From Candidatus Coatesbacteria bacterium (GTDB lineage Bacteria; RBG-13-66-14): 64,000 nucleotides of DNA. Under the pieces are notes generated by a model. It was given only the letters and a program-made list of their open reading frames with translations. It ran no database searches and was not told the DNA's origin. Of this stretch, positions 4,934 to 51,705 are shown piece by piece. The position numbers and the translations under genes are program-made. The first letter of the stretch is position 1; every line of letters begins with the position of its first letter. Location of the stretch: NCBI GenBank assembly GCA_014728225.1, contig WJLX01000012.1, positions 591-64,590 of the forward strand, in the 5' to 3' direction.

Positions 4934-6766
4934 TCAACGGCTGATCACAAACCGTCGGGTCGCCCCTGAACCTTCTCCCGCCAGTCGGGCGAGGTAGACG
5001 CCCGGTTGGTATTGTTCCACATCGAGGAGGAGGGTGTGACGACCGGGGGTCGCCTCCAGGGTTTCCGTAGTTATCCGGCGGCCGGTGAGATCATAGATAG
5101 TCAGCGTCGCTGAGGCGCAGCCCTCGGGCAGGGTGTAGCTGAGCGTCAGGGCGTCGGCGGCCGGGCTGGGATAGGGCTCGTGAAGGGTCAGCCGCTGCGT
5201 CTGCGGTGGCGCGACGACGGCCTCCGTCGGGCCGTAGCGCTCGACCGCGCCCGCGTCCCCGGTGATCTCCAGCCAGTAGGAGTAAGCCTCGCCGGGGGTG
5301 ACGCCCCGGTCCAGCCAGCGGGTGGTTCGCCCGTCGAGGGCACCCGAGACGGCGATGGGATTCTCCCGGCCCCGCAGGACGCGAAGGCCGGCGGGGGGCT
5401 CGCCCTCGACGGCCCAGTCGACCAGGACGCCGTCCCCGCCGGGCGCCGCGCTCAGCTCGACCGCGCCGACGGGGAAGTCCTCGAGGGGGTCGGCCAGGGC
5501 GGCGGTGTAACCTACCGCGGCGCGCAGGACGTCGGTGCCGAAGGGCCAGTAATCCTCGTAGTTGGCCAGCAGGTCCGTGGTGGAATGGTAATGCGGGTTC
5601 TCGTCGTAATCGTTCTCGATCAGCAACAGGGCGGGGTAGCCGTTGTCCCAGAACGGCGAGTGGTCGCTCCACTCGAAGGCGGGGTCGTAGCTGGTGGCGA
5701 CGTTCAGGTCCGGGACGTACTCGGCGGCGAAGGTCTCCAGCCCCGTGGCCAGATCGCTGGATTGGCCGTCGTAGGGCACCCAGACGGTGTAGCCCTCCAG
5801 GCCGTCCCACAACACCATGTCGACGTTGATCACGCCCTGGATGTCGTCGCCGGCGGCGTAGGCCTGGTCGGCGTAGTAGGTGCTGCCGCACAGCCCCTGC
5901 TCCTCGGCGCCGAAGCAGATGTAGCGCAGGGTGGCGTCGAATTCATACTGGGAGAGGACGCGGGCGGCCTCGAGTACGGCGGCGGCGCCGCTGCCGTTGT
6001 CGTCGGCCCCGGGGGCGTCGTCCTCGCTGTTCCAGGGATAACCCGCCGTCGAGTCCAGGTGGCCGCAGATGATGTAGATCTCCTCCGGCGTGACCTGCCC
6101 CGGCTGCTCGGCGATGACGTTGTAGCAGGTGAAGGTGCTGCCGTACCAGGGGTCGGCGGTGAAGGTCTGAATCTCTCCGTCCAGGCCCAAACCGTCCAGA
6201 TAGTCCTCGGCGTAGAGGCAGGACTGGTAATACTGATCGTGCCGGGCGCTGCGGGTGACGAAGTCCTCCAGCTCCTGGATGACGTCCTTGATCTCGTCCT
6301 CGCTGACGGCGTCGACGATCTCGCTCAACTCCTGGTCGTCGGACCACGCCGGTGACGGACCGCCCGAGCTTTCGACCATGCGCGCCGGCGAGGCCGTTCG
6401 CAGGGGCAGGACGCCGTGGAGACCCTCGAGGTTGAAGCCCGGCGGCAGCTCGCCGTTCCAGCGCACCAGATAGAGCTGGTCCCGCCGCCAGACGACCACG
6501 CCCAGTTCGGCCGCTTTGCCCACCGCGGCCGGATCGTTGACCAGAACACGCAGGTACTCCCGGGTCTCGGCGTCACGGTCCAGGACGACGGCGTCGGGCG
6601 TCGCCTCGCCGAGGCAGACCGCGTAGTCGGCGCCCCGAAGAACGATCCGGGCGTCCGCGGGCGGAACGTCGCCCTCGTACAGCACCAGATCGGCGGCGCC
6701 GCCAGCGACGGCGAGCAACAGCAGAAACAACAAAGAAATCAAGGAAATCGCTCGGCGGATCGACAT
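4934..6766 (-). CDS. secreted M28-family aminopeptidase with PA domain and C-terminal T9SS-type sorting (Por secretion CTD) domain
   Basis: Start taken at the internal Met (MSIRRAISLISLLFLLLLAVA, a signal peptide). The upstream in-frame extension would overlap repeat copy B. M28 motifs: GHLDS, ADDNGSGAAAVLE, EEQGLCGS. C-terminal segment TLTIYDLTGRRITTETLEATPGRHTLLLDVEQYQPGVYLARL. Confidence 0.75.
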   Translation of the reverse strand: MSIRRAISLISLLFLLLLAVAGGAADLVLYEGDVPPADARIVLRGADYAVCLGEATPDAVVLDRDAETREYLRVLVNDPAAVGKAAELGVVVWRRDQLYLVRWNGELPPGFNLEGLHGVLPLRTASPARMVESSGGPSPAWSDDQELSEIVDAVSEDEIKDVIQELEDFVTRSARHDQYYQSCLYAEDYLDGLGLDGEIQTFTADPWYGSTFTCYNVIAEQPGQVTPEEIYIICGHLDSTAGYPWNSEDDAPGADDNGSGAAAVLEAARVLSQYEFDATLRYICFGAEEQGLCGSTYYADQAYAAGDDIQGVINVDMVLWDGLEGYTVWVPYDGQSSDLATGLETFAAEYVPDLNVATSYDPAFEWSDHSPFWDNGYPALLLIENDYDENPHYHSTTDLLANYEDYWPFGTDVLRAAVGYTAALADPLEDFPVGAVELSAAPGGDGVLVDWAVEGEPPAGLRVLRGRENPIAVSGALDGRTTRWLDRGVTPGEAYSYWLEITGDAGAVERYGPTEAVVAPPQTQRLTLHEPYPSPAADALTLSYTLPEGCASATLTIYDLTGRRITTETLEATPGRHTLLLDVEQYQPGVYLARLAGEGSGATRRFVISR

Positions 6767-6820
6767 ACGAACTCCATCGCGTTGGTGGTCGAAGGGCGGG
6801 CGGTTGATACCGGAGCAGCG

Positions 6821-7009
6821 CCCGAGAGACCGTTGACGAAACGGCTGCGCGGTCGGGCTCGTCGCGGTCGGAACCGGCACGGTTTTTGCGGAGGCCGACC
6901 GTTAACGTCGGCCGTAACGGTCGCCGAGATGCAAAAACCGTGCCGGTTCCGACCGCCGTGGCGTTGTCGGGTGTCGGCGCGGCGGGCCTTGCGTCAACGG
7001 TCTCTCGGG
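6821..7009. repeat. nested palindromic repeat element, copy B (core 6866..6954, GGAGGC-first orientation)
   Basis: Same 22-bp arms as copy A. Inner hairpin GACCGTTAACG...TAACGGTC. Outer inverted repeat CCCGAGAGACCGTTGACG (6821-6838) / CGTCAACGGTCTCTCGGG (6992-7009). Confidence 0.8.
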
Positions 7010-7026
7010 CGGCGGAGCGGGACGGC

Positions 7027-8286: not shown

Positions 8287-8429
8287 CGCGTCCATTATAG
8301 CACCCCGGACGCCCGGGTCAATGCCGTCGTTGATGCCCCTTGCAGTACCGGCCTCCAATCGGCTATGCTATTAGCCGTCCAGGGTCGATTCTACCGCGAG
8401 TCCCCGGGAGGGCGACTTTGCCGCTGTTC

Positions 8430-14450: not shown

Positions 14451-14819
14451 CTAGAAAACCATCACCTTGTCCGCCGTCGAGATGGCGTCGACGGCATCGT
14501 CCAGCCCGGCCACGGTGACGAAGTCCAGCAGGTCCTCCTCGCCGAGGTCGCGCTCACCCATCTCCGTCCGGCAGGCGAAGATCTCCGCTTTGTCCAGCAC
14601 GGCCAGCATCTGTTGGGGATTGTAACCCAGGCCCTTCTCGACGTTATAGAGCCCTTCGGCGTATTGCGGTCCGCTGCGGGCGCAATAGACGCCGTCGGAC
14701 ATCAGAAAGACCGTCAAGTGCACCGTGGGCAGGCGCATCATCCGCCGCGCCAGGCGCAATCCCGCCCGGGCGACGTCGTTGCCGAAGGGCGGGTGGGTGA
14801 TCACCAAGACCAGTTCCAT
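14451..14819 (-). CDS. DsrE/DsrF/TusD-like sulfur-relay family protein
   Basis: ~120 aa with conserved Cys (VYCARSG; IFACRTEMGERDL). Resembles TusD/DsrE. Confidence 0.55.
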   Translation of the reverse strand: MELVLVITHPPFGNDVARAGLRLARRMMRLPTVHLTVFLMSDGVYCARSGPQYAEGLYNVEKGLGYNPQQMLAVLDKAEIFACRTEMGERDLGEEDLLDFVTVAGLDDAVDAISTADKVMVF

Positions 14820-14913
14820 TCAACCTTCCAGGCTCGGGATCGAAGCGCTGCGGCTCTCGATCCCGCTTGAGCCGGTTATACGGTCCAGCAACGAAGACGA
14901 TAAAGAAGAACGG

Positions 14914-15285
14914 CTAGAGGGTCAGCACCTTGTCCGCGGTCGCCGTCTCTTCGTTGAGAATATCCATCGTACCCTTCTGGATGCCCTCGAGCATGTCGCC
15001 GTCCTGTAAGCCCCGCTCGCCCATGCAGGTACCGCAGGCGTAGATCGTCGCCTTCTCCAGGATCAGCGAGACCAGTTGCGGCGCGCTGAACGTCTGGGCC
15101 TCCAGCTCGCCGTAGGAGCCGTTGGCGTACTCCGCTCTCTTGCAGGCGCAGTAGACCGCTTCCGCCATCAGAAAGATCGACAGCTCCACGCCGGGCTCCT
15201 TGAGCAAGCGGCGGGCGATCCGCAGGGCGCTGCGGGTGGTTTCGTTGCCGTAGGGCGGGTTGGTGCAGATGATGAAGACGCGCAT
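14914..15285 (-). CDS. DsrE/DsrF/TusC-like sulfur-relay family protein (paralog)
   Basis: MRVFIICTNPPYGNE...VYCACKR...IYACGTCMGERGL. Tandem paralog of 14451..14819. Confidence 0.55.
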   Translation of the reverse strand: MRVFIICTNPPYGNETTRSALRIARRLLKEPGVELSIFLMAEAVYCACKRAEYANGSYGELEAQTFSAPQLVSLILEKATIYACGTCMGERGLQDGDMLEGIQKGTMDILNEETATADKVLTL

Positions 15286-17872: not shown

Positions 17873-18289
17873 TTAGCGCGTTTTCGGCGTCTCGATGGTT
17901 GAAGCTGAACGACCTTTCACGGATAAAGAGTCTGCCGTTACGCTTGAAGCCGTCGTGGTAGGCTTTTTGGCGGCGCTTGGCGTGGTCCCGGAAGTCTCGA
18001 GGCCGTTGATATGCACCTTGCCGTTGACCAAGGTCTTGTCATGGTTGATGCGTTTATGGTGAAAGCCGTTGAGCGACAGTTTCTTATTGGCCTTCCAGTC
18101 GTCGGAATAGACGATCATGTCCAGCGCGGCCTGGCGAGCGGCGGCGCGGCGCCGGCGCGTTGCGACGCCCCGGGGACGACGCTTGAACAATTTGCCGCAA
18201 CGCTTGCGCCGATACCGCCCGTCGGCGCAGCGGTAGTTGCAGCTGGGACGGTTGACGCGCCGCTCCCGCAACCCGCTCTTCCCCGTCAC
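17873..18289 (-). pseudogene. IS1595-family-like transposase remnant (internal deletion plus frameshift)
   Basis: Zinc ribbon (PSCNYRCADGRYRRKRCGKLF) fused to the distal half of a DDE domain (IVYSDDWKANKKLSLNGFHHKRINH...VHINGLE). After INGLE the motif continues in another frame (YHDGFKRNGRLFIRERSFSFNHRD). Local GC ~52% versus ~70% in the flanks. No clear terminal inverted repeats found. Confidence 0.5.
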
Positions 18290-18474
18290 ATTGCCCCCTC
18301 GTCAGTGGCGGGATGACAGACCCGTTCACACCACGGGAAGAACCCAACTGCAATAGCTGATGTTCACCTTCCGTGATGATCCCCTAGATTTACCCCGACC
18401 CATGCCGCTGCTTCCCGCACGGGCGACCGCCTCCGGTCGCCCGTGCTCGATCCGGCACCGACGAGGGCCGGCGC

Positions 18475-18530
18475 GTGTTTTTGCGCCGCCGGACCGGACG
18501 GGTCCGGCGGCGTTGCAAAAACCGTGACGG
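18475..18530. repeat. degenerate relative of the palindromic element (variant D)
   Basis: GTGTTTTTGC GCCGCCGGACC ggac GGGTCCGGCGGCG TTGCAAAAACCGTGACGG. Confidence 0.5.
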
Positions 18531-18542
18531 CCCGGCGCAGCG

Positions 18543-18579
18543 GCGACAATGGTTAAAAAACGACAACGGGTCGGCCCGC
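18543..18579 (-). terminator. intrinsic terminator downstream of ccdA-like gene
   Basis: On the minus strand: CGGGTCGGCgcggGCCGACCCG hairpin followed by TTGTCGTTTTTTAACC. Confidence 0.45.
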
Positions 18580-18613
18580 GCCGACCCGCTGCAACAATAA
18601 CCCGTCGATCGCC

Positions 18614-19474
18614 CTAGCCGAAGCTCAGCACGACCTGGATCTTGTCCAGGATCATCAGTACGCCCAGGGCCACCAGTAGCAGACCGCCGATGATCTCGAC
18701 GACCTTCATATGCTTCTTGACCTTCTCGAAGAAGTTCAGGGCGGCGTCGATGGCCAGGGCCGTCAGGATGAAGGGAATGCCGATGCCGATGCCGAAGGCG
18801 GCCAGCAGGATCACCGCCCCCCAGACGTTGGCCTGCAGGGCCATACCGATGATCCCACCCAGAAAGCCGCTGGTGCAGGCGCTGAAGGCGAAAGCGAAGG
18901 TCAGACCCATCAGGAAGCTGCCCACCAGGGTGCCGCTCTTACCTTTGAAGCTGCCGCCGCCGCCGATATAGTTGAGCACGGGGATGTTGACGAAGCCGGT
19001 CATGTGCAGGCCGAAGAGGACGACGATGTGCCCCAGCACCATGAAGAAGATCCGGCGGAAGGGGCTGCCCGGCGCCATGTTGACGCCGATCAGGCCGAAG
19101 ACCGCGCCCAGCAGGATGTAGACCACCAGGATGCCGAGGAAGAAGAACAGGGCGTTGAAGAACATCTTGCGCAGGTTGGCCCGCTTGCGCTTCTTCTTCT
19201 CCTCGGGGGGCAGGGCGTCCAGCTCCTCGCCCTTGAGCTGGCCCAGGGAGAGGCCGGTCATGTAGCTGATGTAGGCCGGGATCAGCGGCAGCACGCAGGG
19301 GGTGAAGAAGGTCACCAGACCCATCAGGATGGCGGTCAAGAAGCCGCCGAAGGAGAACTCCGGTGTACCGTCGACGGCGGCGAAGGCCCCCGTTGGCAGC
19401 ACCAGCAGCAGGATCACGGCGACGAACAGCAGGCGGCGCTTGGACACGTGAACACCTCCGAGGCGATTTAGCAA
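18614..19474 (-). CDS. ccdA: cytochrome c biogenesis / thiol-disulfide transfer membrane protein (CcdA/DsbD family)
   Basis: Polytopic membrane protein. Conserved TPCVLPLIP motif, plus a second Cys in FAFAFSACTSGF. Confidence 0.75.
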   Translation of the reverse strand: MLNRLGGVHVSKRRLLFVAVILLLVLPTGAFAAVDGTPEFSFGGFLTAILMGLVTFFTPCVLPLIPAYISYMTGLSLGQLKGEELDALPPEEKKKRKRANLRKMFFNALFFFLGILVVYILLGAVFGLIGVNMAPGSPFRRIFFMVLGHIVVLFGLHMTGFVNIPVLNYIGGGGSFKGKSGTLVGSFLMGLTFAFAFSACTSGFLGGIIGMALQANVWGAVILLAAFGIGIGIPFILTALAIDAALNFFEKVKKHMKVVEIIGGLLLVALGVLMILDKIQVVLSFG

Positions 19475-19522
19475 AAACGAATGCGTTATCTTACCCCAGC
19501 GGCGGGGTGGATTGCAAGGTTG

Positions 19523-20926
19523 CTAATATCGTCCTTCCGGGCCTTCGGGTTCGGTCTCCAGCGGCGGCGGACCCGCGGCCTGGTCGACCACGGACAGGGT
19601 CAGGGCGCCGGTCTCCCGGGCCCGCTCGTCCCGGGCCAGCCCCGGCACCCATAACGGTCCGGCGGCGTCGGCGATCACGGGGACGTGCTCGCGCTCCCAG
19701 GCCGGCACCCGGCTTTCGGAGAGGATCTTTTTCAGCTTTTTGGTGCCGACGCCGGACAGGCGCAGGGCGTCGCCGTCGATCCGGCTGCGCAGCGTCAGAG
19801 GCAGATCGGCGGTTTCGACGCTCAGGTGACCCAGAGAGCCCGTCATGGGTTTGTTCGACAGCTCGACCAGGTATGAACCCCACTCCCAGCGGCCGGGATC
19901 GTCCAGTTCCAGGGGCGCCGGCGGTTTGGGCAGCCGCTTCGGCCCCAGGCAGATCTTGTGCCAACTGCGGCGCAGGCGCAGGCTCTTGGGCAGATCGACG
20001 GCGGCCTGCTCGTTAGCGCCGCGGACGAGATCGGCCATCTCGACCAGGTGGGCGCTGGTCAGGTGGCCGCGCCAGCCGACGACGGCGGCCCAGACGGCGC
20101 GCAGCGTCTCGAACAGCAGGGCCTCGTGGATCTCGATCAGGCGCTGGATGCCGTAGACCTCACCCCAGGGGCCGGTGCCCAGGTAGGTCTCGGCGGCGAG
20201 TTCGTCGCCGCGGCGGCGCAGGAAGTCTCGCTGGCGCGCCAGGATGCCCGAGGCCCGGGCGATGTTGTGCAGCACCTCCGGATTGACCTGGGCCAGCAGC
20301 GGCAGGACCTGGTGACGGATCAGGTTGCGGGCGATGGCTTTGTCCCGGTTGGAGGGGTCCTCGATCCAGCCCACCCCCCGGCTGCGCAGGTAGGCCCGCA
20401 GGCGGCGGTGGCGCAGGTTGAGGAAAGGCCGCCAGAGCTCGCCGTCGTCGACGACCATCCCGGCCAGGCCGTCCAGACCCGCCCCCCGGGTCAGGTTGAC
20501 GATCAGGGTCTCGACCTGGTCCTCGAGGGTGTGCCCGAGGGTGATACGCCGGAAGCCCTCGCCGCGGCACAGCTCGCGCAGGAAGGTGTAGCGGGCCTCG
20601 CGGGCGGCGGCCTCGCCGCCGGAGCGGTCGGCATCCTTCCAGCGCCGCAGGTAGCTCTTGACGCCCAGCTCATCGCAGAGCTCGAGAACCCGGGAGGCGT
20701 CGGTGGTCGAGTCGGAGCGCAGCCGGTGATCGAAGTGGGCCACGGCCAACTCGAGGTCCAGTTCGGCCTCGACCAGGGCGCGCAGCAGGGCGGTGGAGTC
20801 GGCGCCGCCGGAAACGGCCACCAGCACCGGCGTACCCGGCGGCGGCGCCGAGTCGGTCAAGGCCTGGGCCAGGGGAGCAAAGGTTTCCTCGGGTGGAGTC
20901 CCTGTCTGACGGGCGGGGGGGGTCAT
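19523..20926 (-). CDS. tilS: tRNA(Ile)-lysidine synthetase
   Basis: PP-loop VAVSGGADSTALL. Length and C-terminal domain typical of TilS. Confidence 0.8.
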   Translation of the reverse strand: MTPPARQTGTPPEETFAPLAQALTDSAPPPGTPVLVAVSGGADSTALLRALVEAELDLELAVAHFDHRLRSDSTTDASRVLELCDELGVKSYLRRWKDADRSGGEAAAREARYTFLRELCRGEGFRRITLGHTLEDQVETLIVNLTRGAGLDGLAGMVVDDGELWRPFLNLRHRRLRAYLRSRGVGWIEDPSNRDKAIARNLIRHQVLPLLAQVNPEVLHNIARASGILARQRDFLRRRGDELAAETYLGTGPWGEVYGIQRLIEIHEALLFETLRAVWAAVVGWRGHLTSAHLVEMADLVRGANEQAAVDLPKSLRLRRSWHKICLGPKRLPKPPAPLELDDPGRWEWGSYLVELSNKPMTGSLGHLSVETADLPLTLRSRIDGDALRLSGVGTKKLKKILSESRVPAWEREHVPVIADAAGPLWVPGLARDERARETGALTLSVVDQAAGPPPLETEPEGPEGRY

Positions 20927-20939
20927 CGACCTCCTGCTG

Positions 20940-22508
20940 CTATTTACGGGTCGGGGCTTTGGGGTGCATCACGGCGCAGGGGATGATCATCTCGGGCATC
21001 GAGACGCCGCCGTGCTGGAAGGCGCCGGCGTAGTAGCGTCGCTGCTCGTGCTGACGGTAGGAGTAGACGAAGTTGTAGTCCTCGAGGGCGATCAGGTAGT
21101 TCTTGCCGATGCGCTCGGCGGGCAGGCGCCATTCGCCCGGACGGTCGATCAGCAGGGCGCCCTCGCCCTCGTAGCGCAGGTTCTGGCCGAACCACAACCG
21201 CAGGCCCTTGCTGGTGCGCTTGTCACAGTAGGCGATCACGGCCCGGCGGGTCTGGATGCTGCCGTGATCGGTGGTGATGACCACGGTGCAGTCGCGGCGG
21301 GCCAGCTCCTTGAGCCCGGCCAGCAGCTTCGAGTGGGCGAACCACGAGGCGGCCACGCTGCGGAAGCTCTGCGGCGTGTTGCTCATCTCGCTCAGGACGT
21401 CGAAGTAGGCCCGCTCGTGAGTCAGCACGTCGACGAAGTTGATCACCAGGGCGTAGAGGGTGGGATCACGCCAGCCGCGGAACAGCTCGGCGATATCGGC
21501 GTCGGCGCTGGTGCCGCGGGCCTTCTTGTAGCGCGGCCGTCGGGGCGGCTGGACGCCGTGGCGCTCCAGGCAGGCCCGCATCAGCTCGGCCTCGAACTTG
21601 TTCAGGCTGGCGTCCTCTTCGGAACGCTCGATCCACCAGTCGGGATACCGCTCGGCGATCTGGGCCGGGAAGAGGCCGGAGAAGATGGCGTTGCGGGCGT
21701 AGTTGGTGCTGGTGGGGATGATCGAGAAGTAGGGGAAGTCGTCGATCAGCCAGTCGGCCTCCAGGAAGCGCCGGAACAGCAGCCAGGCGTCGTAGCGCAT
21801 GGCGTCGATGACGATGAAGTACACCGGCCGTTTCTGGCCCAGGAAGGGGAAGACCACCCGGGGCAGGATGTCCGGGGCCAGCAGGGGCCGGCCGCCCTCG
21901 TCGGCGATCCAGTCGCGGTAGTTGTCGATGACGAAGCGGGCGAAGTGGGCGTCGTCCTCGCGCAGCAGTTGGTGGTGCAGGTCGTAGAGGTCGCGGTCCC
22001 GGGCGCTCTCCAGGGCGATATCCCACTTGACCAGGCTGACGTAGCGCTCCAGCCAGTCGTCGGGGTCGGCCAGCTCGTCCCGGGAGCTGTCGAGCTGGCG
22101 CAGCTCGGTCATGTAGCGCTGGACCAGGCTTTGGGCCTCCAGGGCCCGGGCCTCGAGGATGCGCTTGAGCACGCTGACCAGCTGGCTGGGCTTGACCGGC
22201 TTGACGACGAAGTCGTCGGCCGCCAGGCCGTAAGCCTCGTTCATCAGCTCCTCCTGCTCCCCCTTGGTGACCATCACCACGGGGAGCTCGGGGCGGATGC
22301 GCTTGAGTTCGGCCAGGGTCTCGGTGCCGGTCAGGCCCATCATCTGCTCGTCGAGGAGGACGAGGTCGAAGTGCTGCTCCAGCACGGCGCGCAGGGCGTC
22401 GTCGCCGTTGGTGACCCCGGCCACCTCGTAGCCCCGGCGCTTGAGGTACAGCACCTGGGAGCGCAGCAGCTCGATCTCGTCATCGACCCAGAGGATCTGC
22501 TTCTTCAT
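20940..22508 (-). CDS. porX: PorX-like response regulator (REC receiver + PglZ/alkaline-phosphatase-like domain)
   Basis: MKKQILWVDDEIELLRSQVLYLKRRGYEV... 522 aa. The domain order and many residues match how I remember Porphyromonas PorX: ILWADDEIDLL, PVVMVTK, YARNAIFSGL, FQHGG. Confidence 0.8.
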   Translation of the reverse strand: MKKQILWVDDEIELLRSQVLYLKRRGYEVAGVTNGDDALRAVLEQHFDLVLLDEQMMGLTGTETLAELKRIRPELPVVMVTKGEQEELMNEAYGLAADDFVVKPVKPSQLVSVLKRILEARALEAQSLVQRYMTELRQLDSSRDELADPDDWLERYVSLVKWDIALESARDRDLYDLHHQLLREDDAHFARFVIDNYRDWIADEGGRPLLAPDILPRVVFPFLGQKRPVYFIVIDAMRYDAWLLFRRFLEADWLIDDFPYFSIIPTSTNYARNAIFSGLFPAQIAERYPDWWIERSEEDASLNKFEAELMRACLERHGVQPPRRPRYKKARGTSADADIAELFRGWRDPTLYALVINFVDVLTHERAYFDVLSEMSNTPQSFRSVAASWFAHSKLLAGLKELARRDCTVVITTDHGSIQTRRAVIAYCDKRTSKGLRLWFGQNLRYEGEGALLIDRPGEWRLPAERIGKNYLIALEDYNFVYSYRQHEQRRYYAGAFQHGGVSMPEMIIPCAVMHPKAPTRK

Positions 22509-22561
22509 CGGCGGCTCTCTTCCAGGATCCCCCGGTTAACGTTACGGACGGCCCGCCGGTT

Positions 22562-23815
22562 TCAAATCTGTCCGGCCGGGGCGAGCTCGATGGTGAAGGT
22601 GGTGCCTTCGCCGAGGCGGGAATCGACACTGATCCGCCCGTGGTGGTAGTCGCTGATGATCCGCTTGGCCAGGGTCAAGCCCAGGCCCCAGCCGCGGTGC
22701 TTGGAGCTCTTGCCGGCGTCGAAGGCGTGACGCCGCATGTGGCGGGTCATCCCCGGGCCGTCGTCGGCGATCTTGATCACGACCAGGTCGCCCCGGCGTT
22801 CGAGGGTGACCTCGATGGAGCCCACCGGGGTGCTGACGCCGGGATCCAGGGCCTGCTCGACGCGGCGCTCCCGGGCCTCGCGGGTGCGGGCGCCGGCCTC
22901 GGCAGCGTTGCGGATCAGGTTCTCCAGCACCCAGCCGAAGAGGATCGGGTTGAGGGGCACCGGCGGCGTGTCCTCCAGCCGCGTCTTCAGGGCGACGTTG
23001 GCCAGGCTGATCCGTTTCCGGCAGTATTCGACGGCCTCTTCGACCACGGGCCGCGGGTTCAACGGCTCCAGCTCCGGGGCCGAGCCGACCACGGCGAAGC
23101 GGTTGACGATGGCCTCCAGCCGGCCGATGTCCGAGGCCAGCTCGGGCAAAACGTCGGGCAGGCTGGCCGGGTCGTCCTTGAGCAGCTCCAGCCAGCCCAG
23201 CAAACTGGAAACCGGCGTGCCGAGCTGGTGGGCCGTCTCCTTGGCCAGACCGACCCAGATGGCCTGCTGCTGGGACAGACGGAAGCGGTGGTTGGCGTAC
23301 AGCCCCAGCCCGCCGAAGAGGATGATGAAGCCGATGCCCACGCCGGGCACCCAGGCCAGGGAGCGGATGAAGTCGGGCAGGCGGTAGTGCAGGCGGAACA
23401 GCTCGCGCTCGAAGACTTCGCCGGTGGCTCGGTGGGTCTTGCGCTGGACCAGGCTGACCGGTTCGTTGGCCTCGTCCATCTCCTTGGCGATGCGCAGGAT
23501 CTCCAGGCGGGAATCGCTGTCGACGGGTTTGAGTCCGCCGGGCATGTTGCGCGAGGTGACGATCCGGCCGTCGACGGTGGTGACGACGGCGGGAAAGTCC
23601 AGCATCCCGCGCAGGCTCTCGACGATCTCGTCGAGCAGCCCCTGGGGGACCTCGGTGGCCGAGAGGATGGCCGACGAGACGTCGGCGTAGGCCAGGGCGA
23701 CGCTGCGGTACTCGTCCTCGAGGCGGTTGATCAACAGGTTGGAGTAGACGAACAACCCGACGCCGACGAGGACGAAGAGCAGGATGAAGTACAGGGTGAT
23801 CCGCCGTAGAACCAT
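22562..23815 (-). CDS. porY: sensor histidine kinase (PorY-like), cognate of the PorX-like regulator
   Basis: Two TM segments. H-box HQLGTPVSSLLGWLELL. HATPase_c motifs NAAEAG and DDGPGM, plus GWGLGL. Sits immediately upstream of porX in the same orientation. Confidence 0.7.
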   Translation of the reverse strand: MVLRRITLYFILLFVLVGVGLFVYSNLLINRLEDEYRSVALAYADVSSAILSATEVPQGLLDEIVESLRGMLDFPAVVTTVDGRIVTSRNMPGGLKPVDSDSRLEILRIAKEMDEANEPVSLVQRKTHRATGEVFERELFRLHYRLPDFIRSLAWVPGVGIGFIILFGGLGLYANHRFRLSQQQAIWVGLAKETAHQLGTPVSSLLGWLELLKDDPASLPDVLPELASDIGRLEAIVNRFAVVGSAPELEPLNPRPVVEEAVEYCRKRISLANVALKTRLEDTPPVPLNPILFGWVLENLIRNAAEAGARTREARERRVEQALDPGVSTPVGSIEVTLERRGDLVVIKIADDGPGMTRHMRRHAFDAGKSSKHRGWGLGLTLAKRIISDYHHGRISVDSRLGEGTTFTIELAPAGQI

Positions 23816-23816
23816 C

Positions 23817-24326
23817 TCAATCGCCCGGGGGGGTCTCCAACAGCAATCCGGCCTCGCGCTCGCAGGTCGCCGCCAGCTCGCTGAGGTGGCCGACCAGACC
23901 GGCGGGCTCGACGACGACGGGCAGGTCCAGGGCCAGGTACAAGCGGCGGCCGTCGGGGTGCAGGGCGTACTTGTAGCCCGCCAGGGCGAAGCTGCGCTCC
24001 AGGGCCCGGCGGGCCAGGGCAGCGCCCAGCAGGGGCGGGGTTTCGCCGTCGGCCGGGGCCGGCAGCTCCACCAGCAGGGCGCTCAGGAACAGCCGACCCT
24101 CGTCCAGATAGACGGTGATCCGCCAGTCACTGCGCCGGCCGGCGTAATCGACGTACAGGCGTCGGGGCTCGGCGGGATCGCTGGTGACCGTCAGCCCGGC
24201 CTCTTCGAGGGCTTGCAGGTATTCGACGGGGGCGGGCGGTTCCGCGTCGGTGGTCGGGGGCGTCGCGGCGGTCGCGGCGGCCAGGGCCGCGATGAGCAGT
24301 ACCGGCGCTGCCGACCGCTGCTTCAT
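23817..24326 (-). CDS. secreted hypothetical protein
   Basis: Start at MKQRSAAPVLLIAALAAATA (signal peptide). No recognisable catalytic motif. Confidence 0.4.
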   Translation of the reverse strand: MKQRSAAPVLLIAALAAATAATPPTTDAEPPAPVEYLQALEEAGLTVTSDPAEPRRLYVDYAGRRSDWRITVYLDEGRLFLSALLVELPAPADGETPPLLGAALARRALERSFALAGYKYALHPDGRRLYLALDLPVVVEPAGLVGHLSELAATCEREAGLLLETPPGD

Positions 24327-24356
24327 GCTTTGGGGAAACCTCATTCCGGCGTCGCC

Positions 24357-25292
24357 TCAGGGAAAGACCGCCAGTCCGCGCAGCTCGCCCTCGACGGGCG
24401 CCAGCAGCTCGATCCGGCCCGCGGCCGAGGTGCCCAGCCGGCGGTAGATACCCGGACCGGCCTCGAGTTCGGCATAGAAAAGAACGCTCTCGTTGTCGGT
24501 TTCGACGATCGGGAACAGCTCGTCGCCGGGCTCGTCGGTCAGCCGGCGCAGTCCGCTGTTGTCGACGTTATAGAGGAACAGGTCGTAATCGCCCAGTCCC
24601 TCCGGGGAGTCGGGATGGATGACGCCGCCGCGGTTGGAGGCGAAGACCAACCAGCGGGCGTCGTGGCTCCAGGAGGGTTGGATGTTGTCGGCGTGGTCCT
24701 CGACGAGGCCGTCGAACAGCTTGACACCGTGGTCGTAGCGCCAGATGTCCCGGCCCGAGGAGACGGCCTCGCCGGGATGGAGCTCGGCGTCGACGGTCAG
24801 GGCGAGGAAGTTGCCCCGCTGGTCCCAGCGGGCGTCGACGACACCGTTGTACAGCTCGGTGTTGACGTCCAGGGACGGAGAAACGCCCGGCTCGGTCAGG
24901 ACGCGCAGCACCGGGCCGTCGGAGTCGTAGGCCAGGTAGACGACGCCCTCGTTCCAGCTTACCGGGGCCGGAAAGCGGTCGTCGATCAGATTGTGCGTCA
25001 GCTTCTCGACCTCGCCGCCGTCGACGGGGACGCGGTAGATGTCCCAGTCGCCGTCGGCGTCCGAGGCGAAGAAAACCCACTCGCCGTCGCTGGAAAAGGC
25101 CGGCGAGGTCTTGTCGCCCCCGGTGAAGGTCAGCTGTTCGGTCGTCTCCTGCGTCCGATCGAAGAGGTAGACCTCGTCGGAGACGCCCCGGGAGGCGACG
25201 TAGGCCAGGCGGGGTTCGACGTTGCCGGCGCAGCCGGCGGCGAGCAGGGCCGTCGCCGCGGCGAATACGATAAATGGCTTGCTGCGGAACAT
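24357..25292 (-). CDS. TolB-like beta-propeller lipoprotein (PD40/WD40-like repeats)
   Basis: Lipobox LLAAGC after Met at codon 17. Repeated DG..IYF.S.R.G..DIY.. propeller blades. Confidence 0.6.
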   Translation of the reverse strand: MFRSKPFIVFAAATALLAAGCAGNVEPRLAYVASRGVSDEVYLFDRTQETTEQLTFTGGDKTSPAFSSDGEWVFFASDADGDWDIYRVPVDGGEVEKLTHNLIDDRFPAPVSWNEGVVYLAYDSDGPVLRVLTEPGVSPSLDVNTELYNGVVDARWDQRGNFLALTVDAELHPGEAVSSGRDIWRYDHGVKLFDGLVEDHADNIQPSWSHDARWLVFASNRGGVIHPDSPEGLGDYDLFLYNVDNSGLRRLTDEPGDELFPIVETDNESVLFYAELEAGPGIYRRLGTSAAGRIELLAPVEGELRGLAVFP

Positions 25293-25370
25293 CGCTTCTC
25301 TCCAGGCTGGGGAGGGGTCGGAACTCACGCCCGGTAGCATAGCAGATTGGAGCCGGTGCGGTAAAGCGGC

Positions 25371-27539
25371 TCAGTCGGCGAAGGGCTGGAGACCCAGCAG
25401 GTGGTTGGAGTTCTGATCGACGAGGTAGAGCTCCTCGACGCTGCTCCCGGCCACGGACCAGGGTCGCAGGGTCTCGACGTCGGGCTCACCGAGGTGCGAA
25501 GGCGCCACCAGCTCCAAGCGCTCGCCCCGGCGACGCACCGCCCGCAGGTCGATGGTTCCCAGGTGCTCCAGGGCCGGAGCGGCGGCGGCGGGGTTGCCGC
25601 CGTAGAGGTTGTCGGAACCTGCTCCGCGGCGGACCGGCCGGGTGGCGTCGAAGAACTGCAGCCGGTTGTTGTCGCCGCCCTCGGCCACCACCAACACGCC
25701 CTCCCGGGTGACCGTCAGGTCCGTCGGGGTGCGCAGTTGGCCCGGACCGTTGCCGTAGACGTCGAGTTCACCCAGGTAGTCGCCGGCGAAGCTGTAGATG
25801 ATGATCCGGTTGGCAGAGAGGTCGATGACGTACAGCCGGCCGTCGGGTCCGACGGCCAGGCGCGTCGGCTGGGCCAGGGCCGCCCCCCGGGCCGGGCGGA
25901 CGCCGATCTCCAGGTCCCAGCGCCCCGAGGGGCCCCAGCCCTGGAGCCGGTGGTTGAGGGTGTCGGCGACCAGCAGGAACCCGCCGTGATGAACGACGTC
26001 CTGGGGCCGGTTGAGGCTGCCCGGGGCGTCGCCGATCTTGCCCCGGCTGTTGTACAGGTAGCTGCCGTCAGGATCGTACTGCTTGATCGTCGAGTTGTGG
26101 GTGTCGGCGATCCAGACGCCGCCGTCGTCGTCGACGGCCACGGCGCTGGGGCCGGAGAGGGCGCCCTCGCCCCGGTGATCGCCGAAGCAGATCAGCGGCG
26201 CCCGGCGGCGGGAAGCGCTCTCGCGCTTGAGGGTTTCCAGATAGGTCCGCAGCGGCAGGCGGTGGACCCGGTTCTGGTTGTACTCGATGATGAAGAGATC
26301 GCCGCGGTGTTCGTCGACGTAGTAGGGATGCAGGCGCTGGAGCCCCAGGCTCGGCCTGGCGCTCAGGTCCCAGGCCCGCAAAGTGGTCAGCCCCGCCAGT
26401 CGCCGACGCAGGAGCTGGAGCTCCTCCCGATCGCCGACGGTCTCCTCGTTCGGCCGGGGCGGTCGCTGCGGAGCGTGGCGACGCTCGATCCGGCGCGGCG
26501 GCGGCGGGTTGTCGACCAGGGTCAACTCGACGTCGGCCTCGGCGGACAAAGTTGCGGGCGCGGCGGCGCCGGAGCGGGGCTCGGTCCTGCGGCGACGGGG
26601 CTTGACGGGTTCGGGACGCCTCAGGGGTCGCGGTGTGCGCCCCGCCAGATAGACCCGGTTGCGCCCGGCGTTCTTGGCGGCGTAAACCGCCTTGTCCGCG
26701 GCGTGGAGGACGGCGGCCCCGTCGGCGCCGTCCTCCGGATAGAGCCCGACGCCCAGGCTGGCGGTGACCCGGAAGCTGATGCCCTTCTCGGGCACGGGAA
26801 CGGTCTCGGCGGCCAGCTCGCGCCGGACCTTCTCGGCGATGCGGGCGCTTTTGGCCAGGTCGGCGTCGACCAGGATCAGGACCATCTCCTCGCCGCCCCG
26901 GCGCACGGCGAAGTCGCCGTCCCCCGCCGAGCGGCGCAGAACCGCGGCGGCGCTGCGCAGGGCGCGGTCGCCCACGGCGTGGCCGTAGGTGTCGTTGACC
27001 GATTTGAAGTGATCGAGGTCCAGCATCACCACGCCGTAGCGGCCGAAGCGCTCGGCGGCTTCACCGAAGCGGCGTTCCAGCTCGTCCTGACTGTAAAGCC
27101 CGGTCAGGGTGTCGAGCTGGGAGAGCTTGTCGTTGATGATCCCGGTCAGCAGCTCGACGAAGCCGCCGCAGGCCTGGAAGTCGTGTTCGCCCAGCTTGTG
27201 CGGCGGTTCGAGACCGAAGATCTCCAACCGACCGTAGAGCTGACCGCGGTGGTGCAGGGGCAGGGAGAAAACGGGGCTGCGGGCCTCGTTGCCATCCCCC
27301 GCCCCGGGCAGTTCGAGATAGCTCAACTCGGCGTCCTTGCCCGGGCTGCCCACGGGACGCTTGTCGAACAACGGGCAGTAGCGCGGATACCAGACCAGAC
27401 GCGGACGGCGGCAGGCCGTGATCCGGGTCAGGTGCTCCAAAACGGCGCGGAAGACCTCGACGATGTCGTCGGAGTTCCGCGACAGCTTCATCAGCTCGGT
27501 GAACGAGCCGGCGATACTGAAGTCGTCGCTCGCAGCCAC
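25371..27539 (-). CDS. diguanylate-cyclase (GGDEF) domain protein fused to C-terminal NHL-repeat beta-propeller
   Basis: GGDEF core: LDLDHFKSVNDTYGHAVGDRAL...RRGGEEMVLIL, i.e. a GGEEM variant. Pro/Arg-rich linker. Then NHL-like repeats (LNRPQDVVHHGGFLLVADTLNHRLQ; RLYVIDLSANRIIIY). Confidence 0.7.
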   Translation of the reverse strand: MAASDDFSIAGSFTELMKLSRNSDDIVEVFRAVLEHLTRITACRRPRLVWYPRYCPLFDKRPVGSPGKDAELSYLELPGAGDGNEARSPVFSLPLHHRGQLYGRLEIFGLEPPHKLGEHDFQACGGFVELLTGIINDKLSQLDTLTGLYSQDELERRFGEAAERFGRYGVVMLDLDHFKSVNDTYGHAVGDRALRSAAAVLRRSAGDGDFAVRRGGEEMVLILVDADLAKSARIAEKVRRELAAETVPVPEKGISFRVTASLGVGLYPEDGADGAAVLHAADKAVYAAKNAGRNRVYLAGRTPRPLRRPEPVKPRRRRTEPRSGAAAPATLSAEADVELTLVDNPPPPRRIERRHAPQRPPRPNEETVGDREELQLLRRRLAGLTTLRAWDLSARPSLGLQRLHPYYVDEHRGDLFIIEYNQNRVHRLPLRTYLETLKRESASRRRAPLICFGDHRGEGALSGPSAVAVDDDGGVWIADTHNSTIKQYDPDGSYLYNSRGKIGDAPGSLNRPQDVVHHGGFLLVADTLNHRLQGWGPSGRWDLEIGVRPARGAALAQPTRLAVGPDGRLYVIDLSANRIIIYSFAGDYLGELDVYGNGPGQLRTPTDLTVTREGVLVVAEGGDNNRLQFFDATRPVRRGAGSDNLYGGNPAAAAPALEHLGTIDLRAVRRRGERLELVAPSHLGEPDVETLRPWSVAGSSVEELYLVDQNSNHLLGLQPFAD

Positions 27540-27680
27540 GTCCCTAGCTTACCACGAGCGACCGTCGCAGACCAGGGGTTGCTCGACCGCCGTCTTGACC
27601 GGCGGCGGGCGCCGTGGTAGGGTTTTGCCGTTGGGCAAACCCACGCGAGCCCCGTCTCGACAACAATGGACGGTCGAACC

Positions 27681-28199
27681 ATGGGCGCCGTCAAGCGCTT
27701 CTTCACCCGCATCAAGGACTGGCTGCTGGGCAACCGGGACCCCCGGGAGATCGCCCTCGGCCTGGCCCTGGGCGCCGCGATCTCGGTCACCCCCCTGGTC
27801 GGCTTCCACGCCGTGCTGGCCGTCCTGCTGTCCTCGATCACCCCGGCCAACCGCCTGGCCGCCCTGGCCGCCACCCAGGTCGGCAATCCCCTGACCCTGC
27901 CCTTCTGGTTCTGGCTGGAGATCGAGATCGGCGGCTGGATCACCGGCACGATCATCGAGACCCGGCTGGACTTCACCAGCGTCGAGAGCGTCTTCCAGTC
28001 CCTGGGCGGCTTCCTCGGCGAGGCCGCCCTGCCCTGGATGATCGGTGCCGGCCTGCTCAGCGTCGCCGTCGGCTTCAGCGTCTACTACCTGACCATCCTC
28101 GTCGCCAAGCTCCTCCACCTGCGGATGCGCCGCAGACTGCTCGTCGAGGAGGCCCGCCGCGCCGCCGAAGAAGCAGCCGGAGAGAACGACGGCTGCTGA
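27681..28199 (+). CDS. DUF2062-family membrane protein
   Basis: Start MGAVKRFFTRIKDWLL. Motif GLALGAAISVTPLVGFHAVLAVLL...GNPLTLPFWF typical of DUF2062. Confidence 0.55.
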   Translation: MGAVKRFFTRIKDWLLGNRDPREIALGLALGAAISVTPLVGFHAVLAVLLSSITPANRLAALAATQVGNPLTLPFWFWLEIEIGGWITGTIIETRLDFTSVESVFQSLGGFLGEAALPWMIGAGLLSVAVGFSVYYLTILVAKLLHLRMRRRLLVEEARRAAEEAAGENDGC

Positions 28200-28200
28200 A

Positions 28201-28361
28201 CCGCGAACGACCTCGACGGACGCCAGCCACGCCAGCCCCCCGAGCCGGCACGGTTTTTGCGGAGGCGAACCGTCGCCGTCGCTCCGACGGCCGCCGAGCT
28301 GCAAAAACCGTGCCGGCTCGGGGGGCGAGGTCGAAAGACGGGCCGTCGAGGTCGTTCGCGG
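28201..28361. repeat. nested palindromic repeat element, copy E (core 28236..28326, GGAGGC-first, GAGCCGG variant)
   Basis: Core CCCCCGAGCCGGCACGGTTTTTGC GGAGGC ... GCCGAGCTGC AAAAACCGTGCCGGCTCGGGGGG. Outer inverted repeat CCGCGAACGACCTCGACGG (28201-28219) / CCGTCGAGGTCGTTCGCGG (28343-28361). Confidence 0.8.
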
Positions 28362-28506
28362 GGTCAATGTCCGTAAGCGAGCGTTGGCCTCCACACCGCC
28401 GCGCGCCGGCGGTCTTTCACTCCGTCGCCCTGTGGTGGTAAACTGGTGAGGTTGCGTGACCGGGCGTACGCGAACCAATCCGACGCTCACGAAAGGGAGG
28501 CGCGAA

Positions 28507-28861: not shown

Positions 28862-30859
28862 GTGTCCATGGCGCGTAAACAACGAACCGGCGGGTTCTGG
28901 GACAGCCCCTGGCCCAAGGTGATCATCGTGGCGGCGGCGCTGCTGCCCCGGCTGCTGCTGTTGGGCGCCCTGGCGCCCAGCGAGTTCTTCACCGAACCGG
29001 TGATGGATTCCCAGGTCTACGACGATTGGGCCTGGACGATCGTTTCCGGGGAGTACCAGGGCCAGGCGGAGCATTACCTCAACGGCTCCTACTACATGGG
29101 GCCGCTGTACGCTTACTTCCTGACCCTGATCTTCGGGGTTTTCGGTCACAGCCTGCTGGCGGCGCGGCTGGTGGGGGCGCTCATCGGCGCGGCGACGGCC
29201 CTGCTGGTTTCCGGGATCGGCAACCGGCTGTTCGGTCGGAAGCTGGGCTTCGCCGCCGGCCTGGCGGCGGCCCTCTACCCGGCGCTGTTCTTCTACGACG
29301 CGGCCCTGCTGATGAGCGTGCTGCTGGTCTTCCTGACCGCCCTGGCGCTCTACCTGGTGCTGCGTGGGCAGCAGGGGGACCGCTGGTACCACTGGCTGGG
29401 CGCCGGGGCCTGCCTGGGCTGCTACGCCCTGGGCCGGGCCAACATCCTGCTCTTCGCCCCGGTGCTGGCGCTCTGGGTCTTCTTCAGTTTCTGGAAGAAA
29501 CCGGGGGAGGACGGCGTCGGCTCCGGTCTGGGCGGGCGCTGGAAAACGGAGCGGCGGCGGGGCTTCAAGCGCGTCGTGCTGCTGGCCGCCGGGACGCTGC
29601 TCTTCGTCGCGCCGGCGACCATCCATAACGCCGTCGAGGGCGGCGAGTTCGTCCCGGTGACGGCCAACGGCGGCATCAACTTCTACATCGGCAACAACGA
29701 GCTGGCCACCGGCGAGTACGTCAACCCCTCCTGGATCGATGTCAAGCACGACCCCGGCGGACTGTCCTACGTCGAGGGCCGGCTGGGCGAGCAGTTGACC
29801 TACGGCGAGGCCTCGCGCTGGTGGAGTGCGCGGGCCGGGGAGTGGATCGCCGACAACCCGGGTCGCTGGTTGGGGCTGCTGGGCACCAAGGCCTTCCTCT
29901 TCGCCCACCGCCACGAGATCATGCAGGTGGCCAACATCCACGTCATCCTGGGCTGGGAGACGCCGTCATGGTTCTTCGGCGTGCTGTTCACCCTGGCCCT
30001 GGCGGCCTTCGTCTGGGGGCGCGAACAGCGGCGACGGATGGGCGCGCTGTGGCTGTTCCTGTTGGTTTACGCCCTGTCGATCGTCGTCTTCTTCATCACC
30101 TCGCGTTACCGATTGCCCTTCGTCGTCGTCGCTCTGCCGGCGGCGGTCTGGGGGGCGCGGGAGCTGGTCCGGCGCTCGCGGCGGGGCGGCAGGGTGTTGG
30201 TAAAAACCCTGGCCCTGGTGGTGCCGCTGTTGGTGGTGACCAACATCCCCCTGAGCTGGTTGGGGATCGAGCTCCAGGGCAACGACGCCGCCCTGGCCAA
30301 CAACCGGGGCACGATCTACCTCGAGCAGGGCGCCTACCAGTTCGCCGCCGAGGAGTTCGAGCGCGCCGCCCGGGCCAACCCCAAGCTCTACGCCGTCTAC
30401 ACCAACCTGGGGATCGCCAACCTGCGCCGGGGGATGATCACCGAGGCCCGTAATAACTTCCGGCAGGCCCTCTCTCTCTACCCGGACCCCAAGGCGATGA
30501 TCAACCTGGGCGGGATCTACCTGGAGAAGGTCCAGAACGGTGAGCGCCAGTACCTCGACGATGCCGGCCGCTACCTGGCCCGGGCCGTGGAGCTGGTTCC
30601 GGGTAACCCCAACGCCAACATTAACTTCGCCATCTACCAGTTGGCCCTGGCCGATTACGAAGGCGCCGCCGACACCCTGGAGCGCGGGTTGGTCTACCGG
30701 CCGGACAATCCGCGCCTGCTGTTCTATCTGGGCCATCTCTACGCCAAGGAGCTGGAGCGTCCGGCGCGCGCCGTCGAGCTGTTGGAACGCTTCCTGGAGA
30801 CCCGGCCCTGGACCGCCGAGCACAATGTGGCCCTCTCCTGGTTGGAAGCGCTGCGCTAG
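28862..30859 (+). CDS. GT39/PMT-ArnT-family membrane glycosyltransferase with C-terminal TPR repeats
   Basis: N-terminal polytopic domain with DD/YY-rich loop (GSYYMGPLYAYFL), typical of dolichyl-phosphate-mannose/ArnT-type transferases. C-terminal ~250 aa are TPR (LANNRGTIYLEQGAYQFAAEEFERAARANP...). Confidence 0.65.
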   Translation: MSMARKQRTGGFWDSPWPKVIIVAAALLPRLLLLGALAPSEFFTEPVMDSQVYDDWAWTIVSGEYQGQAEHYLNGSYYMGPLYAYFLTLIFGVFGHSLLAARLVGALIGAATALLVSGIGNRLFGRKLGFAAGLAAALYPALFFYDAALLMSVLLVFLTALALYLVLRGQQGDRWYHWLGAGACLGCYALGRANILLFAPVLALWVFFSFWKKPGEDGVGSGLGGRWKTERRRGFKRVVLLAAGTLLFVAPATIHNAVEGGEFVPVTANGGINFYIGNNELATGEYVNPSWIDVKHDPGGLSYVEGRLGEQLTYGEASRWWSARAGEWIADNPGRWLGLLGTKAFLFAHRHEIMQVANIHVILGWETPSWFFGVLFTLALAAFVWGREQRRRMGALWLFLLVYALSIVVFFITSRYRLPFVVVALPAAVWGARELVRRSRRGGRVLVKTLALVVPLLVVTNIPLSWLGIELQGNDAALANNRGTIYLEQGAYQFAAEEFERAARANPKLYAVYTNLGIANLRRGMITEARNNFRQALSLYPDPKAMINLGGIYLEKVQNGERQYLDDAGRYLARAVELVPGNPNANINFAIYQLALADYEGAADTLERGLVYRPDNPRLLFYLGHLYAKELERPARAVELLERFLETRPWTAEHNVALSWLEALR

Positions 30860-48064: not shown

Positions 48065-48076
48065 CGAGGTGACAAC

Positions 48077-49880: not shown

Positions 49881-50018
49881 CACGAGCACCCGACGACGAC
49901 AGCCCGGACCCCCTTCACAGCACCCCCTTATTCTTGACACACCCCGCGCCCCGGTGTTACTTTCATTGCGCTATCAACACCCACGGGGAGCTCCCCGCAA
50001 CCCCCGACAAAGACAACT

Positions 50019-51637: not shown

Positions 51638-51705
51638 CCAGCGGGCGGCGCGTCCGGCTCCAAGCGAACGCCGCCGCTTCTTAAAAGCACGGGGGATGGC
51701 TCTCG

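Follow-up and report, generated by a model that had tools for sequence, protein, structure and literature searches.

A linked porY-porX gene pair in Candidatus Coatesbacteria and its probable relation to type IX secretion

A 64,000-nucleotide stretch of DNA from a Candidatus Coatesbacteria bacterium (contig WJLX01000012.1, positions 591 to 64,590; hereafter the window) carries two adjacent minus-strand genes for homologues of PorY and PorX, a sensor histidine kinase and a response regulator associated with the T9SS (type IX secretion system) of Porphyromonas gingivalis. Our analysis indicates that they probably make up an operon-encoded PorY-PorX two-component system, orthologous to the split pair of P. 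gingivalis and tuning a T9SS, in a layout that is most likely ancestral. An earlier note, written from the sequence of the window, had already pointed to such a pair; its observations are confirmed and its interpretation holds in part, as set out below. The pair is arranged as follows.

22562..23815, minus strand: porY orthologue, a sensor histidine kinase of 417 amino acids (aa), assigned by HisKA and HATPase_c matches (Pfam), hydropathy and BLASTP
22509..22561, minus strand: porY-porX intergenic spacer of 53 bp, with a purine-rich GGAAGAGAG just 5' of the porX ATG
20940..22508, minus strand: porX orthologue of 522 aa, with a receiver (REC) domain, a helical linker and a PglZ/alkaline-phosphatase-type phosphodiesterase domain

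The PorX regulator and the PorY kinase

The earlier note described the product of 20940-22508 as a REC plus PglZ regulator following the PorX pattern, and our searches bore this out. Pfam placed Response_reg (PF00072) at residues 5-114 (86.9 bits), and the hidden Markov model search for PglZ that had been proposed as a check matched residues 229-424 (60 bits). The NCBIfam equivalog NF052313, titled "T9SS response regulator signal transducer PorX", scored 542 bits against a cutoff of 300, with residues 4-517 covering model positions 2-513 of 513. The crystallised P. gingivalis PorX (7PV7) aligned with residues 5-517 at E=3e-110, and the P. gingivalis structures 7PV7, 7PVA and 7PVK and those of Flavobacterium johnsoniae PorX (8TED and 8P6F) aligned equally well (E~1e-110). 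In P. gingivalis PorX, D58 is the phospho-acceptor, T272 the nucleophile, and D239, D361, H365, D415 and H416 make up two zinc sites (PMC9757075). All of these have one-to-one counterparts in the 7PV7 alignment, namely D53, T268, D235, D360, H364, D414 and H415 of the window protein, and the same positions (D53, D235, T268, D360/H364 and D414/H415) were invariant in an alignment of 19 PorX homologues from different phyla. The length of 522 aa lies within the 500-530 aa reported for PorX, as against at least 600 aa for the PglZ proteins of bacteriophage exclusion (BREX) systems (PMC9757075). The open reading frames (ORFs) of porX and porY had a GC content at third codon positions of 0.94-0.95 in a window of about 68% GC, so that both are clearly coding. 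For both proteins, the nearest homologues were found in other Coatesbacteria, including RBG_13_66_14.

By these comparisons, the regulator is a full-length PorX orthologue whose catalytic and phospho-acceptor residues are all intact. It shares with P. gingivalis PorX (PGN_1019) and F. johnsoniae PorX the length class, the order of REC, helical bundle and PglZ domains, and an identical set of phospho-acceptor Asp, Thr nucleophile and zinc ligands. However, its setting is different. Known PorX is encoded by an orphan gene whereas the window porX sits directly behind a kinase gene; it is followed by tilS, while most other PorX lineages have tsaB-rimI-accD; and its host is a member of a high-GC candidate phylum which NCBI taxonomy places under "Bacteria candidate phyla", outside the FCB (Fibrobacteres-Chlorobi-Bacteroidetes) group. 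Known PorX has SigP and PorL as partners, cleaves linear and cyclic oligonucleotides and crystallises with pGpG (PMC9757075). For the window PorX, in which the catalytic residues were checked, an oligonucleotide phosphodiesterase activity and binding to SigP and PorL are predicted from homology.

To compare the kinase with an authentic PorY, the P. gingivalis gene was located with the porY primer sequences given in Table 2 of PMC8050853. Metagenome contigs were scanned for exact occurrences of the 18-nt porY primer, and most matches were due to chance. The real porY was present in four of the fetched loci (L110, L127, L191 and L199; 46-49% GC), where both reverse primers were found at the published spacing (nt 26-526). 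As reference we used the ORF L110:809-1996(-), encoding 395 aa, whose identity is borne out by matches to three of the published primers and by A35 falling at the periplasmic boundary; the periplasmic region of PorY has been defined as A35-R149 (PMC12152298). In BLASTP, residues 2-411 of the window kinase aligned with residues 15-388 of this PorY at 33% identity (182 bits, E=8e-58). The alignment spans the two transmembrane segments with the periplasmic domain between them, the H-box, which is near-identical, and the ATP-binding domain. The earlier statement that a PorY-like kinase lies directly upstream in the same orientation is therefore confirmed, with a gap of 53 bp.

The layout of the two kinases agrees as well. 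By hydropathy, the transmembrane segments of the window kinase lie at about 5-30 and 150-174, those of PorY at about 15-38 and 148-174; in the window kinase a periplasmic sensor occupies residues ~30-150, and the second segment is followed by the H-box ETAHQLGTP (H196) and the ATP-binding domain. Pfam detected just HisKA and HATPase_c in the window kinase and no HAMP or PAS domain, which is the layout of PorY (PGN_2001/PG0052): transmembrane segment, periplasmic domain of ~115-120 aa, transmembrane segment, dimerisation and histidine phosphotransfer domain and catalytic domain, without HAMP or PAS. The H-box (KETAHQLGTP.SSL..W.ELLK) and the G2 box (RGWGLGL.LAKRII) are near-identical between the two. 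The window kinase differs from P. gingivalis PorY by an Arg/Glu-rich insertion of about 20 residues (ARTREARERRVEQALDPGVSTPVG) in the ATP-binding domain, at residues ~307-328 (~22830-22900, minus strand). The genes before it, for a PD40 lipoprotein and a small secreted protein, differ too, as neither adjoins porY in P. gingivalis.

Profiles built from 15 PorX-linked kinases, none of them from Bacteroidota, were scored on the 2,950 ORFs of all fetched loci. With the full-length profile, PorY reached 333-337 bits, whereas the highest-scoring kinase from outside the family stayed at 92 bits. A profile of the sensor alone (window residues 1-178) matched the PorX-linked kinases and the four PorY copies only (~72 bits, E~5e-21). 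On the basis of the alignment and these profiles, we assign the window kinase to the PorY family as an orthologue. In P. gingivalis, the periplasmic domain of PorY binds the C-terminal sorting domain of PorA, a T9SS cargo. The AlphaFold model of the corresponding domain in the window kinase, which is a confident one (pLDDT 90.2, pTM 0.84), showed a helix-helix-strand-strand-helix-strand-strand order. A Foldseek search of this model against the PDB returned no significant match; its weak top matches (E 0.01-0.1, TM 0.30-0.43) were extracytoplasmic PAS/PDC-type sensor domains, which is no more than suggestive of a PAS/PDC-type fold class for the modelled domain.

GenBank names the window porY "hypothetical protein GF399_01140". 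NCBIfam gave generic kinase matches alone for this protein and contains no PorY model: the best match of authentic PorY was AtoS, at 126 bits against a cutoff of 646. The poor annotation is probably due to the missing PorY-specific model. Across databases, PorY-family kinases bear generic names such as "HAMP domain-containing histidine kinase", although HAMP was not detected in the window kinase.

Gene order in Coatesbacteria and linkage across phyla

The pair belongs to a row of seven minus-strand genes with gaps of 30, 12, 1, 53, 13 and 48 bp. In the order of transcription, the other members of the cluster and the sites behind it are these.

25371..27539, minus strand: GGDEF diguanylate cyclase with NHL repeats, first gene of the cluster (TIGR00254, 142 bits)
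24357..25340, minus strand: PD40/TolB-like beta-propeller protein with a lipoprotein-type N-terminus (LLAAGC; PF07676 PD40, 61.7 bits)
23817..24344, minus strand: small secreted protein of 175 aa with a hydrophobic, signal-like N-terminal segment; its stop lies 1 bp from the porY start
19523..20926, minus strand: tilS, tRNA lysidine synthetase, 13 bp 3' of porX (TIGR02432 at 164 bits, and TilS_C)
18614..19474, minus strand: membrane protein of DsbD_TM/CcdA-like type, whose gene closes the cluster (weak ArsG/DsbD matches)
18563..18592, minus strand: two overlapping terminator-like sites 21 bp past the last gene; the larger combines a 13-bp stem (9 G-C pairs) with a T-run

In the terminator scan, the sites at 18563-18592 were the only minus-strand terminator-like sites within 18000-28500, and none was found in the 53-bp spacer between porY and porX. 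The promoter scan revealed no sigma-70-like promoter on the minus strand, a negative that is uninformative for this phylum. Because the spacing is tight and the sole terminator-like sites lie after the last gene, porY and porX are likely co-transcribed as an operon. Of the co-transcribed PorXY pair that had been claimed for the window, the operon-like arrangement on one strand stands as an observation, and co-transcription is what we infer from the spacing. The 175-aa protein had no match in Pfam or NCBIfam. The cyclase has the motif GGEEM instead of GGEEF or GGDEF and no obvious upstream RxxD inhibitory site; its NHL repeats are C-terminal, and its first ~135 residues have no family match.

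Linked porY-porX was found in three Coatesbacteria loci, counted besides the survey described below. The closest relative with a long locus (L081; 59% kinase identity) has the gene order of the window cluster, with the GGDEF+NHL gene on the same strand near porYX, the DsbD_TM gene in the same position and an IS200-like gene inserted; the latter, a Y1 transposase gene at 8173-8595 of that locus, lies between the GGDEF and PD40 genes. Another relative (L082) has retained PD40-porY-porX, and its GGDEF+NHL gene is 7 kb away on the opposite strand. The space between holds a pair of genes for a STAND NTPase (4930-9081 of that locus) and a PMT_2-TPR protein. The window has the same pair: a 1,380-aa AAA_16/STAND-type NTPase with TPR repeats (30872-35014, plus strand) and, before it, a PMT_2 glycosyltransferase-TPR protein (28862-30859). 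The PD40 protein was 34% identical to the product of the same-position gene in L082 (E=5e-52) and was also present in L081, while the 175-aa protein was 37% identical to a 152-aa product in the same position in L081 (E=9e-19) and was also present in a further locus (L083). These similarities show that, across the Coatesbacteria loci, the genes for the PD40 protein and for the small protein are true homologues. The porX-tilS adjacency recurs in L081 and in a more distant lineage labelled Coatesbacteria (L204 and L205, protein P0009), in which the order is porX-tilS-hprt and the genes upstream are those for Lon and HSP20, with none for a kinase. By this gene order, the P0009 lineage has lost the porY linkage while keeping porX-tilS.

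The separation of porX and porY in Porphyromonas, as asserted in the earlier note, agrees with published work on P. gingivalis (PMC4800418, PMC10951265, PMC8050853). We found one published PorX/PorY phylogeny, covering Bacteroidetes alone (PMC7323717), and in the literature no paper describing an operonic porY-porX. A scan of one genome per species gave 80 PorX loci, the best-scoring subset of at least 590, and 72 of them had enough upstream DNA to be judged. A PorY-family kinase gene ended no more than 117 bp before the porX start, on the same strand, in 20 of these 72 loci; in one more it lay 1.8 kb upstream (21/72). The pair was linked in Fibrobacteraceae (2/2), Latescibacteria (4/4), Zixibacteria (4/4), Eisenbacteria (2/2), Poribacteria (2/2), Gemmatimonadetes (1/1) and one clade of metagenome-assembled genomes (MAGs) labelled Ignavibacteria. 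It was unlinked in every Bacteroidota sampled (Balneolales, Rhodothermales, Cytophagia, Chitinophagaceae, Prevotella and Breznakibacter) and also in Calditrichia, Melioribacter, most Ignavibacteriaceae, LCP-89 and Cloacimonadota. Orphan PorY-family kinases occur outside Bacteroidota too, in Calditrichia. The two Poribacteria chromosomes with linked porY-porX (OZ241983.1 and OZ252032.1) belong to a group that NCBI, as with Coatesbacteria, puts outside the FCB group, although published work describes PorX as limited to FCB.

Clustering of neighbour genes together with NCBIfam revealed a recurrent block, serS-porY-porX-tsaB-rimI-accD-folC, as the usual setting of linked pairs; a closed Gemmatimonadota genome (CP070758.1) has serS-porY-porX-tsaE-tsaB-rimI-accD-folC. 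Unlinked loci typically keep porX-tsaB-(rimI)-accD without serS-porY, from which it follows that porX stayed in the block and the breakpoint lay just upstream of porX. A model in which serS and porY moved together fails in P. gingivalis, where serS does not adjoin porY; no serS match was found beside porY in the P. gingivalis loci. In a rough neighbour-joining tree of PorX, rooted at the midpoint, linked loci clustered together and unlinked loci mostly formed one large clade. Provisionally, the linked arrangement is most likely ancestral, and Bacteroidota, Calditrichia and most Ignavibacteria would have lost porY from the block.

Type IX secretion, proposed function and rival explanations

The window also encodes a candidate cargo protein.

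4934..6766, minus strand: probably secreted M28 aminopeptidase of 610 aa with a C-terminal T9SS type A sorting domain (PF04389 Peptidase_M28, 116 bits)

Residues 532-608 of the 610 (about 77 residues, nt ~4943-5173) scored 34.0 bits with PF18962 (cutoff 27) and 30.4 bits with TIGR04183 (cutoff 23), in line with the earlier assignment of this tail to the Por-secretion type. The check that was proposed against it, namely a generic Ig-like/FlgD domain, came out in favour of that assignment: FlgD_ig reached 16.6 bits, below its cutoff of 27, and no single stretch passed by itself, so a generic domain was rejected. The N-terminus (MSIRRAISLISLLFLLLLAVAGGAADL) is hydrophobic and signal-like, as judged by hydropathy only. 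A homology search with the C-terminal domain, a short query, gave two matches; a tail with 64% identity occurs in another Coatesbacteria MAG, in a protein named by NCBI "T9SS type A sorting domain-containing protein". By its profile matches the tail is a genuine T9SS type A domain. The domain matches of regulator, kinase and peptidase all exceed chance by far. Like those of gingipains and other Bacteroidota cargo, the tail forms the very C-terminal end of a hydrolase, here one that is probably secreted; it differs in that its scores are only modestly above the cutoffs and that no secretion machinery to recognise it was seen in the 64-kb window. The adjoining gene (7027-8358, minus strand) encodes a 443-aa secreted-looking protein without T9SS tail. 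The middle of this protein is acidic and of low complexity, and a carboxypeptidase-regulatory-like/prealbumin-like match at its C-terminus stays below cutoff.

PorX has been described as present across the FCB group, confined to it and co-occurring with T9SS (PMC9757075), and T9SS has been suggested for Fibrobacterota, Gemmatimonadota, Cloacimonadota, Ignavibacteriota and others (PMC11285876). Given the PorX and PorY membership, the cargo-type tail of the window, the second tail in the other MAG and this published co-occurrence, Coatesbacteria are likely a T9SS-bearing phylum. By homology with the P. gingivalis system, the PorY kinase would sense a periplasmic signal through its sensor domain of ~120 residues, autophosphorylate on H196 and hand the phosphate to D53 of PorX. 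Phospho-PorX would then dimerise, and this would activate both its protein contacts and its zinc-dependent phosphodiesterase domain, which would cleave oligonucleotides; active PorX would tune the T9SS, whose cargo would include the M28 peptidase. For phosphotransfer from PorY to PorX, the adjacency in 21/72 loci and in the three Coatesbacteria loci serves as a proxy only.

Several points weigh against a PorY-PorX operon that tunes a T9SS and has an ancestral layout. No core T9SS gene (sprA/sov, porK-N, porU/V or sigP), extracytoplasmic function (ECF) sigma factor gene or porL-like gene was found in the 64-kb window, and in about 85 loci none of these, and no sigP-like gene, stood beside porYX, the neighbours being housekeeping genes only. 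The link to type IX secretion in this organism draws on one cargo-type tail and published co-occurrence, and co-transcription on gene spacing. The ancestral state is provisional because the tree is a rough midpoint-rooted one and the loci are the best 80 of at least 590; moreover, the taxon labels of MAGs in the survey may be imprecise. In P. gingivalis, porY mutants keep secretion, and two structural studies doubt that PorY is the physiological PorX kinase (PMC9757075; 10.1101/2024.05.15.594396). Conserved operonic linkage, seen here in at least seven phylum-level groups, is what genomes classically show for a cognate pair; it bears on this dispute, but it cannot settle the role of PorY for P. 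gingivalis.

The strongest competing explanation, which we consider distinctly unlikely, is that the pair is of the PorXY type without controlling a T9SS and takes part in nucleotide second-messenger turnover, for example by sensing an envelope signal and clearing breakdown products of cyclic di-GMP (c-di-GMP) or other oligonucleotides. The GGDEF+NHL gene would fit, being the first of the cluster and found again near porYX in two relatives, and so would the pGpG-bound crystals and oligonucleotide cleavage of PorX (PMC9757075), the lack of T9SS genes beside porYX and the housekeeping context that is usual at the loci examined. However, GGDEF does not adjoin porYX outside Coatesbacteria, and in L082 it lies on the opposite strand 7 kb away. 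Cyclic dinucleotides were not cleaved by PorX in vitro, and surveys find PorX wherever T9SS occurs (PMC9757075). The T9SS-type cargo tail encoded in the window and its counterpart from another Coatesbacteria MAG also speak for the secretion-tuning role rather than for nucleotide turnover.

Two further explanations concern the identity of the genes themselves. That the kinase is an unrelated neighbour, adjacent by coincidence, could be argued from its NCBI label "hypothetical protein" and from the absence of a curated PorY model. But kinases of this one family stand before PorX in 21 loci from at least seven phylum-level groups, and the match to authentic PorY is full-length and includes the sensor domain. 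The PorY alignment, the profile separation and the 21-locus linkage refute a chance adjacency, to which we give a very small probability. Even less probable, to the point of being negligible, is that the PglZ protein belongs to a BREX/Pgl-type phage defence and not to signalling. The PglZ domain is common to BREX, whose BREX-3 PglZ shares the PglZ/alkaline-phosphatase fold with the window regulator, and NF033449 (BREX_PglZ_3) gave a weak match of 73.4 bits. That score is far under the 250-bit cutoff, while the PorX equivalog model was passed. BREX PglZ is longer, lacks a receiver domain and has another gene context, whereas the window protein has an N-terminal receiver domain and, with 522 aa, is below the BREX length (PMC9757075). 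Since the BREX cutoff failed and no brx or pgl genes occur in the 64-kb window, the phage-defence reading was rejected.

Returning to the PorY-PorX operon with an ancestral layout, a bolder version of it can be formulated: the porYX operon in the serS block would be ancestral to the whole T9SS-bearing radiation, the Bacteroidota orphans would reflect a secondary break immediately before porX, and the Coatesbacteria operon would have been rebuilt around GGDEF, the PD40 lipoprotein and the small secreted protein. We hold this to be unlikely, though not negligible. If the ancestral operon were true, it would provide independent genomic evidence for PorY as the cognate PorX kinase. A rebuilt operon in Coatesbacteria, if true, would hint that the PorX phosphodiesterase acts in vivo on pGpG derived from c-di-GMP and that dedicated partner proteins in the periplasm gate PorY.

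As for annotation, a "hypothetical protein" gains a name as a PorY orthologue, its neighbour as PorX, and a nearby peptidase is recognised to bear a T9SS sorting tail. The comparative result may be of more use. Outside Bacteroidota and a small number of other lineages, where they are orphans, PorY and PorX form a conserved operon; such operon-encoded pairs would be genetically simpler systems for tests of PorXY signalling. The earlier note expected the pair to be informative for T9SS evolution outside Bacteroidota. The novelty implied there was overstated, as PorX and T9SS outside Bacteroidota have been published and the linked layout is widespread and not peculiar to this genome. The porYX pair adds one more case of a known system, from a phylum that has been little studied, and brings a modest comparative finding, the probable ancestral operon with its break upstream of porX. 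None of this would surprise a T9SS specialist.

Other features of the window

Next to the 443-aa protein, on the plus strand, 8340-11567 encodes a protein of 1,075 aa that begins with a region resembling adenylate/guanylate cyclases and also has a large regulatory part of AAA/TPR type (weak LipJ, AfsR and HaaT matches); the gene overlaps the start of the adjoining minus-strand gene by 19 bp. At 14451-15285 (minus strand), two tandem DsrE/DsrF-like sulfur-relay genes lie beside tgt. The region 46000-50000 has 72-76% GC and long overlapping ORFs on both strands, of which only an IlvD/Edd-family dehydratase gene (46373-48064, plus strand) was assigned. An Rfam scan of the window gave no matches, and tRNA-Leu(GAG) at 61781-61867 (plus strand) was the only RNA gene found in it. 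Finally, an MglB-like GTPase-activating protein (NF052242, 102 bits), an MglA-like small Ras-like GTPase and a DUF4388 protein are encoded in a row at 51140-53127 (plus strand); in Myxococcus, the MglAB-type module controls the polarity of gliding cells.

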